From IMG/VR virus record IMGVR_UViG_2778261457_000002, positions 1 through 9,862 of that record: 9,862 nucleotides of DNA; one strand, 5' to 3'. The DNA comes from a virus. Its lineage: Duplodnaviria > Heunggongvirae > Uroviricota > Caudoviricetes. Under the pieces are notes generated by a model. It made no database searches and was not told the DNA's origin. It worked only from the letters and a program-made list of their open reading frames with translations. A program made the translations under genes and the position numbers. Of the stretch, positions 5,653 through 8,938 are shown in pieces (the first letter of the stretch is position 1; every line of letters begins with the position of its first letter).

Positions 5653-8640
5653 ATGAGCTTAAGCGATCAGGTGGTAATGGCCACCAGCATAGAAACGCTG
5701 ATCGAGCTGCTAAAGAACCTGCCCGATTTCGGGCGGGTTTCGTATGTGGTGACAGCGAAGGGTGACGAGGTAAAAACAGCGTTTGATATCGTCGATGCCT
5801 CGGCTCTTTTGGTATCCAATACTCTGGACGGGAAAATTAACCCTGACTATCCCCAGGAACTTCAGCCGCGCGACCGGACCCGCGCATCCAGTCTTCTTCA
5901 GGTCAACAAGATATCCAAGGATTTGCGTCCTGCCCAGCTTACCGATTCCGGTTTATCCAGCCATGGCGCGCCGATAATTGGTGAGGACAATGCCGTTGAG
6001 TCAGGTAATGGACGGACCATGGGGATCATCAAAGCCTATCAGGACGGCAATGCGGATCGGTATCGTGAGTACCTGATTGATCATGCGACCGAATTCGGCA
6101 TACCTCCTGAAAAGGTTGAATCAATGACGGCTCCGGTACTGGTGCGCCGCCGGTTAACTAAGGTTGACCGCGTTCAGTTTGCCAAGGACTCAAATATTTC
6201 TGATCTTCAGGAAATGGCAGCCAGTGAAAAGGCTTTTGTTGATGCCGACAGCATAACACCGGCGATGATGGCGCTTTTTAACCCGTCAGAAAGCGGAGAT
6301 CTGCTTAGCCGCAGTAATGACGCGTTTATTCGCGGATTTATGACGCAAGTTGGTGCCACACAGGCGGCTGGCCTTGTAACTGAAGATGGGCGACCAACAC
6401 GGCAACTTGTAGACCGTATACAAAACGCGATCTTTGCCAAGGCATATAAGGATGCGCGCCTGGTAAGGATGGTTGCAGAAGAACCTGATCCGGATATGCG
6501 TAATGTTCTGACGGCGCTTAATGCGGCAGCCAATGATTTTGTCCAGATGCAGGCTTTATCAGGAGAAGCGCACAAGCAGGCTGTGACAACTATTGTTGAT
6601 GGCATTGAGACAGCGGATAGCCTCGATAAAAAGGCGCTGGCGGCATTGAAAGATGCGGTAGACCTGGTAAGGCAATCGAAGGAGTCAGGCCAGCATATTA
6701 CCGATGTTATTGCTCAGGGGGATATGTTCAGCGAAACGGCCCCGGAAGTGAAAGCACTCGCGTTGTTCATCGTCGCGAATAACCGTAGCGCGAAGCGTAT
6801 GGCCACCGCCTTTAAGTTGATGGCTCAACGTATCAATGATGAGTTACAGCACCAGGGCCAGGCGCTGGGGGATATGTTTGGCGGCGGCGATGTGTCGTTA
6901 CAGGATATCCTTCGCCAGGTGTCTCAGGAACTGGAAAACGAAGGCATGCAAGGGATATCCGGCGGTCTTTTCGAGTCCGTTTCCGGCGGTAGTTACAACG
7001 GTGTTGCTCCATATACCAGTTTGCTATTACATCGGGCATCCGGCATCAAAGACATTATTCATCTGATCAGGCTGCTTTCCCGTACAGATCCCCATGATGA
7101 ACAGCTTGTACAAGTGCTTGCGCATTTTGTTCGAATGCCTGTTGCCGACGTGAAAAAATGGTGCCGATTATTCGGTATCAGCAATTCGTTACTTCGCGGC
7201 TTGTTAAATCACGCATCCTCCCTTGGGCGCGATGGCTTTGACGAGATAGCGCAGGCGATAAAAAACGGAGATATGCCACCAGCTATTGACTGGTTTTCCA
7301 TTCGCCCAACCAGGGTGAAAGCATTCCTTAGCGCGGCGCATTCGGCATCATCATTGGCAGAAATGGTTCAGAGGTTGTCGCTCATATTCACAGACCATAC
7401 CGCGTTGGGTGATCTGACTCTGGACGAGATGAAAGATGCCTCCATTCAGTGGGCCGATCAACAAAATGAGGTTAACTCAGACTTCTTGACAGCATTCAGG
7501 AAGGCCGTTAGTAAAGCGGATGATGCCCGTGGAATTCTGAAGGCATTTAAGGCATTGCAAAGTCGTGTTAATAAACATGTCGGTGATATCGATGGGGTAA
7601 CGGCGGAAGGCCGGGATATCCTTAAAGAGCACGGTATAACGCCAGAGTTTATTGATGAGATCAGGACTGATATGCAGCGTGAGGTCGTATCGTCCCTGCA
7701 AATCGTAGCCAGAGCGTTGGCGGATGCTAATCCGAAGAGTGCGGCCATTGTTAACCGGGTTATTGGTGATATTGAAGCATCGGAGGGCATGGGGGTACTG
7801 AAACTCTTCCTTTCGCGAGCGTTTAATCCTAACGGCAATATTCTCCCTGGCATTATTGGTGAGGCTAAAAAGTATGTCAGTGAAGAAGAACTTGAGCAGC
7901 TTGACCAACTACTTAAGCGATTCTCATATAACCCGCAGACACGCTGGCAAATGAATCAGCGAAGTATGGGTTCGGTCCACGAGAAAGTGTTATCTGCCAT
8001 GAACAGTGCGATCGCAAACTCATACGTATCTGAAGAAAAAGCTCTTGAGTGGGCCGACTCTTTTATCACAGAAGAAGTGGAAGAAGTCCGCGCTGGACAG
8101 AATGGTGGGATAGACCTGCGCAAGGAACTTGCTGATATTTATCGCCTGACCGGCGGGAAAATATCGACCTTATCAAAGGTAGTTCACCACCAGGGAAGGG
8201 CATATGCAAATCTTAATGGTGTTGTTGCTGTCAATTTGAACGATGAAAATGCAAGTGCACTGTGGCACGAGCTGGGTCATCATCTTGAGTACAGTAACCC
8301 TGGTTTGTTAGAGAAAGCCCGGTCATTCCTGAAGGCCAATGTTGAAGGGGATAAGCCATCTTTCGTCAATATCGGTGGGCGTGGCAAGCCTGAATGGTGC
8401 TTCAGATCTCGATTGAGTAATATTTATATGGCGAAGGTATACCCGCCAGCCTCAGTAAGTAACACCGGGAAAATTCGGCAGAAATCTCCGACTATTTCCA
8501 AAACGTCAGCAACGGAAGTATTCTCTATGGCTCTTCAGTTGTATCATGACAAAGAGGCCGCTGCCGCATCACTGATGAATGGTGACGGATTGCTGGAACT
8601 GTTATTAGGTGTGGCAAAGGAGCTAAATAATGCAGATTAA
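5653..8640 (+). CDS. ddrB: DdrB-like large protein (about 109 kDa) with a C-terminal HExxH motif
   Basis: 995-aa ORF starting 12 nt after the ddrA stop. Contains WHELGHH at residues 871-877 (nt 8263-8283), preceded by a predicted beta-strand (GVVAVNLND). Position and size match P1 DdrB as recalled. Confidence 0.65.
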   Translation: MSLSDQVVMATSIETLIELLKNLPDFGRVSYVVTAKGDEVKTAFDIVDASALLVSNTLDGKINPDYPQELQPRDRTRASSLLQVNKISKDLRPAQLTDSGLSSHGAPIIGEDNAVESGNGRTMGIIKAYQDGNADRYREYLIDHATEFGIPPEKVESMTAPVLVRRRLTKVDRVQFAKDSNISDLQEMAASEKAFVDADSITPAMMALFNPSESGDLLSRSNDAFIRGFMTQVGATQAAGLVTEDGRPTRQLVDRIQNAIFAKAYKDARLVRMVAEEPDPDMRNVLTALNAAANDFVQMQALSGEAHKQAVTTIVDGIETADSLDKKALAALKDAVDLVRQSKESGQHITDVIAQGDMFSETAPEVKALALFIVANNRSAKRMATAFKLMAQRINDELQHQGQALGDMFGGGDVSLQDILRQVSQELENEGMQGISGGLFESVSGGSYNGVAPYTSLLLHRASGIKDIIHLIRLLSRTDPHDEQLVQVLAHFVRMPVADVKKWCRLFGISNSLLRGLLNHASSLGRDGFDEIAQAIKNGDMPPAIDWFSIRPTRVKAFLSAAHSASSLAEMVQRLSLIFTDHTALGDLTLDEMKDASIQWADQQNEVNSDFLTAFRKAVSKADDARGILKAFKALQSRVNKHVGDIDGVTAEGRDILKEHGITPEFIDEIRTDMQREVVSSLQIVARALADANPKSAAIVNRVIGDIEASEGMGVLKLFLSRAFNPNGNILPGIIGEAKKYVSEEELEQLDQLLKRFSYNPQTRWQMNQRSMGSVHEKVLSAMNSAIANSYVSEEKALEWADSFITEEVEEVRAGQNGGIDLRKELADIYRLTGGKISTLSKVVHHQGRAYANLNGVVAVNLNDENASALWHELGHHLEYSNPGLLEKARSFLKANVEGDKPSFVNIGGRGKPEWCFRSRLSNIYMAKVYPPASVSNTGKIRQKSPTISKTSATEVFSMALQLYHDKEAAAASLMNGDGLLELLLGVAKELNNAD

Positions 8641-8938
8641 AATCGCAGCGCCATTAGGCGGAGATGCCATTATCGAATTTGATGATAATGAAGAAGTTTC
8701 CGGGCGTTTAAGCATTATCTCCGGTGACATTACCGAGGACATGATCGCTGAAGCCATAGCTGGAGCAAATCCCAATAGCTATATGGGATTCGTTGACACC
8801 CTTGATGCTCCCGCAAGTGATGTTCTCCGAACGCTGCATCTTTACGCTGGCTGGTTTGTTGATTGGCCTGTTGTAGATGGTGGCGATGAGGACGACGACG
8901 ATGATTTTGGTGATCATGTAGACCAGATAGTATATTAA
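8630..8938 (+). CDS. Hypothetical extremely acidic small protein, 102 aa
   Basis: AAGGAG sits 8 nt upstream of ATG 8630. The start overlaps the ddrB 3' end by 11 nt. Product has 24 Asp/Glu against 3 Lys/Arg and a poly-Asp C-terminal tail (VVDGGDEDDDDDFGDHVDQIVY). Confidence 0.55.
   Translation: MQIKIAAPLGGDAIIEFDDNEEVSGRLSIISGDITEDMIAEAIAGANPNSYMGFVDTLDAPASDVLRTLHLYAGWFVDWPVVDGGDEDDDDDFGDHVDQIVY

Follow-up and report, generated by a model that had tools for sequence, protein, structure and literature searches.

The gene hxr, at positions 8630-8938 on the plus strand of a 9,862-nucleotide stretch of Caudoviricetes DNA (IMG/VR record IMGVR_UViG_2778261457_000002; hereafter the window), is the last gene of the darA operon of phage P1 and encodes an extremely acidic protein of 102 amino acids. 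We propose, with a probability of about 0.4, that Hxr is a late-made partner specific to the C-terminal, predicted peptidase region of DdrB, an antirestriction protein for which it might act as a chaperone or an inhibitor. The reality of the gene, its position in the operon, its conserved coupling to ddrB, the domain anatomy of its product and the co-distribution of that product with the C-terminal part of DdrB (DdrB-C) are directly supported.

Positions 8300-9862 of the window are 99.9% identical to phage P1 records over their full length, and the window extends in P1 from cin through the darA operon to the resident IS1. The open reading frame (ORF) at 8630-8938, with an ATG start and a TAA stop, is the annotated P1 gene hxr (P1_gp021, YP_006490.1), an identity that the initial annotation of this DNA, made from the sequence alone, did not recognise. 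The same gene is ORFVIII in the 1998 record of the darA operon (AJ000741), and in P7 it is named odaA and annotated with "unknown protein function". Since 2004 the P1 gene has carried the description "possible repressor; homolog of Xre", which is based on an alignment of ~58 residues with 28% identity to the Xre phage repressor. Although annotated long ago, hxr has never been studied: the searchable library yielded no paper on the function of Hxr, and the searchable literature describes no mutant specific to hxr. Work by Iida et al. in Virology in 1998 reportedly found eight ORFs of >100 amino acids in the operon and credited the known phenotypes mainly to the 5' genes.

Patterns of substitution establish that hxr is a real, conserved gene. 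Among 22 distinct core alleles from P1-like contigs, the ratio of nonsynonymous to synonymous polymorphism (pN/pS) is 0.18 in the annotated frame, versus 1.2 and 3.6 in the other two frames, and 17 of 29 segregating sites are third codon positions. The gene is intact in 79/79 close alleles. A non-coding or chance ORF is ruled out by these pN/pS values and by conservation. The allele of laboratory P1 is atypical, in that its D56 (8795-8797) and V81 (8870-8872) are shared with only one other locus, and nearly all other close alleles have N56 and A or S81.

The composition of Hxr bears out the initial annotation, which had reported an extremely acidic protein with a charge of about -21 and a poly-Asp tail. 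There are 18 Asp and 6 Glu residues against 1 Lys and 2 Arg, for a net charge of -21 and an isoelectric point (pI) of 4.05, and the charge density is the highest among the products of all genes in the window. The tail reads D83-GG-DEDDDDD-FG-D-HV-D-QIVY. An AlphaFold2 model based on a 17-sequence alignment has an overall predicted local distance difference test score (pLDDT) of 75, and replaced an unusable model from five near-identical sequences (pLDDT 37). According to this model, residues 1-82 (8630-8875, plus strand) form a folded core with a predicted beta-beta-beta-alpha-alpha-beta order (pLDDT about 83), and residues 83-102 (8876-8935, plus strand) are a disordered polyanionic tail (pLDDT < 50). 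Invariant core residues in the alignment are G53, V65-L66-R67, L69, W75 and W79-P80. The net charge of the core ranges from -3 to -11 across the family, with ~5 conserved acidic columns. Family-wide, the tails (from residue 81) are 20-25 amino acids long with a net charge of -8 to -14, lack Lys and Arg, and are rich in Pro and Gly. Their sequence is not conserved, and they end in an aliphatic residue followed by N, Y or H, usually as I/V-V-N. Even among close alleles the poly-Asp run varies from 4 to 8 residues.

The Hxr family is tiny and restricted to P1-like dar operons. A word-indexed search of 5.8 billion proteins returned close relatives only, and an exhaustive HMMER search of 1.84 billion cluster representatives gave 16 matches, including full-length proteins of 96-100 amino acids with 28-45% identity. 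Profile searching led to ~17 diverse full-length members, which are mostly on 80-96 kb contigs (Klebsiella, Citrobacter, Rosenbergiella and metagenomes). None of the family members found is fused to another domain, and the sole variant architecture is a tandem duplication (P0014, 184 amino acids). This duplicated Hxr, at 8205-8759 of locus L006, has two cores, the first followed by a short acidic linker and the second by a full tail, which hints that single-domain Hxr works as a dimer. Hxr has no match in Pfam (E <= 1), NCBIfam (E <= 10) or a sequence-profile search of PDB, and no fold relative of its core was found among the solved structures searched. It is a member of PHROG 2292 (phrog_2292, E 4.3e-58, protein 1-102, profile 1-105), whose label is "unknown function". 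The initial judgement that the protein belongs to no named family is thus supported.

Coupling of hxr to ddrB is evident in P1 and conserved well beyond it. The TAA stop codon of ddrB (8638-8640) falls within hxr codons 3-4, and the two genes share the 11 nucleotides ATGCAGATTAA (8630-8640, plus strand), exactly the overlap initially described. The Shine-Dalgarno sequence that had been noted is AAGGAG, located within the ddrB coding sequence 7 nucleotides before the hxr ATG (8617-8622, plus strand). Homologues of 28-45% identity retain the 11-nucleotide overlap, and diverged lineages keep the Shine-Dalgarno sequence as AAGGAG, AAGGAA or CAGGAG. At loci L006 and L099, the overlap is 14-17 nucleotides.

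We found no promoter-like site on the plus strand between 8300 and the start of hxr. A late promoter consisting of a -22 signal and a -10 element, known here from the annotation of AJ000741, is situated 5' of lydA (1952-1990, plus strand) and is annotated as driving lydA-lydB-hdf-darA-ddrA-ddrB-hxr, of which hxr is the seventh and final cistron. The end of the operon is marked by a hairpin with a 13-bp stem (9001-9034, plus strand) between the convergent genes hxr and isaB, inside the terminator feature of AJ000741 (8968-9041). A terminator scan returned nothing, the loop of this hairpin being larger than the limit of the scan, and it is RNA folding that reveals the structure. A GC-rich hairpin also directly follows the hxr stop codon in every diverged lineage. 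With its annotated late promoter and terminator, hxr shows the dar-operon encoding and late co-transcription that are expected of a Dar component. The suggestion that it is co-expressed with the antirestriction genes is therefore supported, as hxr is the coupled last cistron of the late darA operon.

The upstream gene ddrB (5653-8640, plus strand) encodes 995 amino acids and is identified by annotated records and by a match to the ddrB-ParB family PF18763 (E 2.5e-39). DdrB consists of a conserved N-terminal ddrB-ParB half, a hypervariable middle and a conserved C-terminal domain predicted to be a zincin metallopeptidase. The candidate active site is HELGH (amino acids 872-876; 8266-8280, plus strand), which aligns within an invariant WHExGHHxE motif and is followed downstream by an invariant TE. 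Iyer et al. predicted a zincin-like metallopeptidase in this domain and proposed that it autoprocesses DdrB, to ~76 kDa, ahead of packaging (PMC5512222). Our DdrB-C profile matched nothing significant in Pfam or PDB, leaving the motif alone to indicate a peptidase. Residues 901-945 are the only markedly basic part of DdrB, and the segment comprising amino acids 886-952 (8308-8508, plus strand), which has a net charge of +9 in P1, is the proposed docking target of the Hxr tail. The hypervariable middle (amino acids 446-830; 6988-8142) is 19-29% identical or undetectable between lineages, compared with 61-91% for the N-terminal ParB half, which suggests that this part of an injected effector is under diversifying selection or that its segments are often replaced. 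A gene called iddB (6207-6605, minus strand) is annotated antisense within the highly conserved N-terminal half of ddrB, and nothing that we saw, no dedicated test having been made, supports it as a real gene.

Matches to the Hxr hidden Markov model occur at the 3' end of ddrB in 82 of 90 ddrB loci. In loci reached through diverged Hxr proteins, the gene is always directly 3' of ddrB, as the last after lydA-lydB-hdf-darA-ddrA-ddrB, and the genes beyond it vary by lineage (isaB/IS1, a porin, toxin-antitoxin modules, an Arc-like gene or a CHAP gene). Strict linkage to, and co-inheritance with, the C-terminal domain of an effector is the pattern of effector-immunity and effector-chaperone pairs, and is what we observe for Hxr, with adjacency as a confounder. 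The eight loci that lack an Hxr match are L086, L022, L017-L020, L015 and L021. At L086, the contig terminates within ddrB, and L022 encodes a Marinomonas polyvalent protein of 2316 amino acids that has only the ParB domain in common with DdrB. Loci L017-L020 (Enterobacter, two Pantoea and Erwinia; ~3965-5347) encode a DdrB of just 443-460 amino acids that corresponds to the ParB half only. In these four P1-like loci, DarA and DdrA are present, and we detected no remnant of the DdrB C-terminus by tblastn, no Hxr and no small acidic ORF. This natural short form of DdrB indicates that a dar operon can carry the ParB module on its own.

The remaining exceptions, L015 (Serratia) and L021 (Rosenbergiella metrosideri), and their relatives in viral contigs (L103-L106), encode a full-length DdrB bearing HExxH. 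Each has an acidic ORF of 104-107 amino acids, with a net charge of -14 to -17, that overlaps the ddrB stop codon by 8 nucleotides. ORFs of the L015 type are collinear with the Hxr profile over 67-70 columns (hhalign P 5e-4 to 1e-3). Those of the L021 type share only a VL..L...G.....WP motif with Hxr, and their hhalign P of 0.06-0.19 led us to reject them as proven homologues and to treat them as positional analogues.

Two further comparisons link Hxr to the end of DdrB. L006 and P7 are 94-100% identical up to approximately codon 882 of ddrB, diverged over the last ~115 codons of ddrB, hxr and the terminator, and again 87-100% identical from ~330 nucleotides beyond the hxr stop codon. Confinement of the divergence to the end of ddrB and hxr indicates that the pair moved as one cassette, whose left breakpoint is just before the basic segment of DdrB. 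The charge of that segment also varies with that of the tail. DdrB 886-952 carries +7 to +11 in six lineages with true Hxr, whose tails carry -8 to -14, whereas in the L015 and L021 lineages the segment is shorter, with charges of 0 and +1, and the tails of the small ORFs are mixed in charge. Without correction for phylogeny, segment and tail charges in these eight lineages are correlated with a Pearson r of -0.74 (p 0.04) and a Spearman rho of -0.70 (p 0.05).

From these comparisons we infer, beyond co-distribution, that Hxr may bind DdrB, that its tail may cover part of DdrB and that it may be a chaperone or inhibitor. Ribosomes that finish ddrB would re-initiate on hxr, so that both proteins would be made together late in infection. 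The ~80-amino-acid alpha/beta core of Hxr would dock onto DdrB-C through its invariant VLR...W...WP surface, and the flexible tail would lie over the basic segment beside the HExxH site, much like an intramolecular mimic of DNA or substrate. Hxr might in this way keep DdrB soluble, restrain its peptidase or DNA-binding activity until processing and procapsid loading, or do both. Conservation of acidity in a disordered tail, together with an invariant hydrophobic and aromatic core, fits a docking domain plus an electrostatic arm, and the reported processing of DdrB to ~76 kDa is a point where regulation would be of use. As an alternative to mimicry of DNA, the initial annotation had offered chaperones for basic DNA-binding partners, which comes close to the comparative evidence, with the basic C-terminal segment of DdrB as the partner. 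Another basic protein of the operon, Hdf (2746-3357), has a net charge of +21, the mirror image of Hxr at -21, which is probably a coincidence. We rejected Hdf as the basic partner of Hxr, given that DarA and DdrA persist in the loci that have a short DdrB and lack Hxr, where Hdf is assumed to be present as well.

Several observations weigh against a dedicated partnership with DdrB. Because hxr adjoins the 3' end of ddrB, a single deletion, fusion or recombination event can explain both the absence of Hxr from short-DdrB loci and the L006 pattern without a functional link. The charge correlation is borderline and comes from eight lineages that are not independent, and L015-type proteins have a charge of -17 despite a neutral DdrB segment, so the segment alone does not explain the acidity. 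Divergence of Hxr tracks that of the whole operon (rho 0.99 with darA, 0.86 with ddrA and 0.83 with ddrB-C), and we therefore dropped a mirror-tree-style correlation of identities as support for the pairing, darA correlating better than ddrB-C. Peptidase activity of DdrB-C is likewise no more than a prediction. Finally, knockdown of hxr or ddrB by CRISPR interference caused no plating defect on a permissive host. No phenotype thus anchors the partner model, and the result means that hxr is non-essential on a permissive host, nothing more.

In a different reading, which we regard as rather unlikely, Hxr would be a DNA mimic or decoy aimed at the host, probably dimeric, that occupies the DNA site of a type I restriction enzyme, a nuclease, a defence sensor or RecBCD. 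It would act once injected from the virion or, alternatively, at a late stage of infection. Its size, pI and charge density are within the range of known DNA mimics, it is encoded in the one P1 operon dedicated to antirestriction, and the tandem-duplicated variant is suggestive of a dimer. Its evolution is also fast in a manner reminiscent of an arms race, with 28-45% identity where the N-terminal part of DdrB has 61-64%. The initial annotation favoured a mimic of the Ocr or ArdA kind and called for homology searches and structure prediction, which we carried out and which reveal no sequence or fold likeness of Hxr to Ocr (PF08684), ArdA (PF07275) or any solved structure searched. The location of the conserved charge also weighs against such a mimic, as that charge is in a sequence-variable tail predicted to be disordered and probably not in a rigid array, the charge of the core being unconserved. 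Because expression is late, protection of incoming DNA would require that Hxr be packaged, and the six Dar proteins defined genetically and biochemically (Hdf, DarA, DdrA, DdrB, DarB and Ulx) do not include it. Its absence where darA, ddrA and a short ddrB are kept (and hdf, by assumption) would be odd for a free-standing weapon against the host.

It is unlikely that Hxr is packaged as a seventh Dar protein or internal component of the head and lacks a role specific to DdrB, for example as an acidic cargo or spacer that is loaded into the procapsid, ejected with the DNA and comparable to the acidic internal peptides of T4 heads. All other products of hdf-darA-ddrA-ddrB are head-internal, and DdrA is likewise small, acidic (121 amino acids, net -15) and packaged, though unrelated to Hxr, a homology that we rejected on an hhalign probability of 0.1%. 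Unassigned low-resolution density has been reported around DarA and Hdf in capsids (PMC12810830). Hxr has not been detected in virions by any reported method, and the 27 proteins listed in the virion proteome of P1 do not include it. As a small and poorly staining protein it could have been overlooked, and it is nearly invisible to tryptic mass spectrometry. Trypsin would cut it into peptides of 4, 22, 41 and 35 residues, only one of which is within the range of 7-30 amino acids, and the proteome filter required two peptides. Its absence from the proteome is therefore uninformative for packaged cargo and injected mimic alike, and the supplement of the proteome paper holds no peptide-level data. 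The published data do not discriminate among a DdrB partner, a DNA mimic and packaged cargo. The distribution of Hxr follows long DdrB and not Hdf, DarA and DdrA (again with Hdf assumed in short-DdrB loci), which counts against a general head component.

It seems improbable that Hxr is a substrate or cofactor of the DdrB metallopeptidase, cleaved by it or activating it in loose analogy to ImmA/IrrE-Xre systems. The hxr gene adjoins and is coupled to the part of ddrB that encodes the HExxH domain, and peptidases of the ImmA/IrrE type are classically paired with a small partner protein. However, Hxr lacks a helix-turn-helix (HTH) and is not Xre-like, and DdrB-C has no significant similarity to ImmA/IrrE families; computation cannot tell a substrate from an inhibitor. 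The current annotation of Hxr as an Xre-like transcriptional repressor is effectively refuted. All that speaks for it is the note of 2004 with its short alignment, which has since been propagated. Hxr has no match to HTH_3 (PF01381) or any other HTH family at the Pfam and NCBIfam thresholds given above, its net charge and pI are incompatible with DNA binding, and its predicted fold opens with three beta strands, unlike a five-helix bundle. It is encoded by the last cistron of a late structural operon, and no repressor in PDB was found by sequence or fold. As Hxr fails each defining feature of Xre/HTH proteins that we tested, the "repressor" annotation is very probably wrong.

Hxr can be compared with several known systems. 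Like Ocr (T7 gp0.3) and ArdA, it is small, very acidic, possibly dimeric and found in an antirestriction context on a mobile element. In Ocr and ArdA a rigid fold displays carboxylates in fixed arrays, and synthesis comes first upon entry, whereas Hxr resembles neither in sequence or fold, carries its conserved charge in a disordered tail and is made late. In resembling the immunity proteins of colicin E-Im, barnase-barstar and polymorphic-toxin systems, Hxr is an acidic protein of ~100 amino acids whose gene is coupled directly 3' of the region encoding the enzymatic C-terminal domain of a larger effector, and domain and small gene are swapped together as a cassette. However, there is no homology or fold match to these proteins, and the activity of DdrB-C is only predicted. 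Moreover, the cell producing P1 is already committed to lysis, which makes self-protection less obviously needed. Class I chaperones of type III secretion (of the SycE and CesT type) are also small, acidic, alpha/beta and probably dimeric, and their genes neighbour those of effectors that are translocated. Such chaperones maintain their effector in a state fit for loading and are not themselves known to be translocated.

The tail of Hxr has parallels in single-stranded DNA-binding protein (SSB), T7 gp2.5 and T4 gp32, where a disordered tail that is rich in Asp and Glu and has a conserved, hydrophobic end competes electrostatically for a basic DNA-binding surface. Those tails, however, belong to DNA-binding proteins and have aromatic ends (for example, DDDIPF), whereas Hxr has no oligonucleotide/oligosaccharide-binding (OB) fold and usually ends in I/V-V-N. 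Within P1, Ulx is another small protein encoded beside a giant Dar effector, and is needed for incorporation of DarB into heads. This likeness was drawn without a sequence comparison, as ulx is outside the window, and Ulx differs in having been detected in virions and having a demonstrated role, neither of which holds for Hxr. The PBSX repressor Xre and other HTH_3 proteins resemble Hxr in length only; Hxr has no HTH, an acidic and not a basic surface, and a beta-rich N-terminus.

Just 3' of the hxr terminator is a variable cargo slot, which we compared among P1, P7, L002, L003, L004, L006, L007, L009 and L010. The slot contains isaB and IS1 in P1, an nmpC-type porin gene in P7 and L006, a RelE/MqsA-like toxin-antitoxin pair in L003, an Arc-like gene in L007 and a CHAP-domain gene in L004, L009 and L010. 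In the window, isaB (9050-9655, minus strand) has a GC content of 36.5%, compared with 46-52% in the dar operon genes, and the window closes, at ~9790-9862, with the left terminal inverted repeat (GGTGATGCTGCCAACTTACTGAT...) of the IS1 copy that is resident in P1.

Many records of P1-like phage-plasmids now bear the label "putative repressor protein Hxr", apparently an error passed on from record to record, and these include a carrier of mcr-1 (PMC5786510), a kind of element that is tracked clinically. The label is almost certainly wrong and should be replaced. A filter requiring two tryptic peptides systematically hides acidic proteins that are poor in Lys and Arg, a class that contains the DNA mimics. 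More speculatively, and with considerable doubt on our part, Hxr might have an orphan fold and be a seventh functional Dar component that has gone unnoticed, acting either as a cargo-loading chaperone of DdrB or as a DNA decoy that is itself packaged and injected. As a chaperone, it would license the processing and encapsidation of DdrB, and would be a phage-capsid counterpart of the effector chaperones of secretion systems. As a decoy, its polyanionic tail would act in the newly infected cell. Its escape from 25 years of work on P1 would then be explained by the repressor mislabel and by its near-invisibility to tryptic proteomics. The Dar system of P1 is the textbook case of virion-packaged antirestriction, and a conserved, coupled partner of the peptidase end of DdrB would provide a concrete handle on the ordering of cargo into the procapsid and on the cutting of DdrB from 108 to ~76 kDa.

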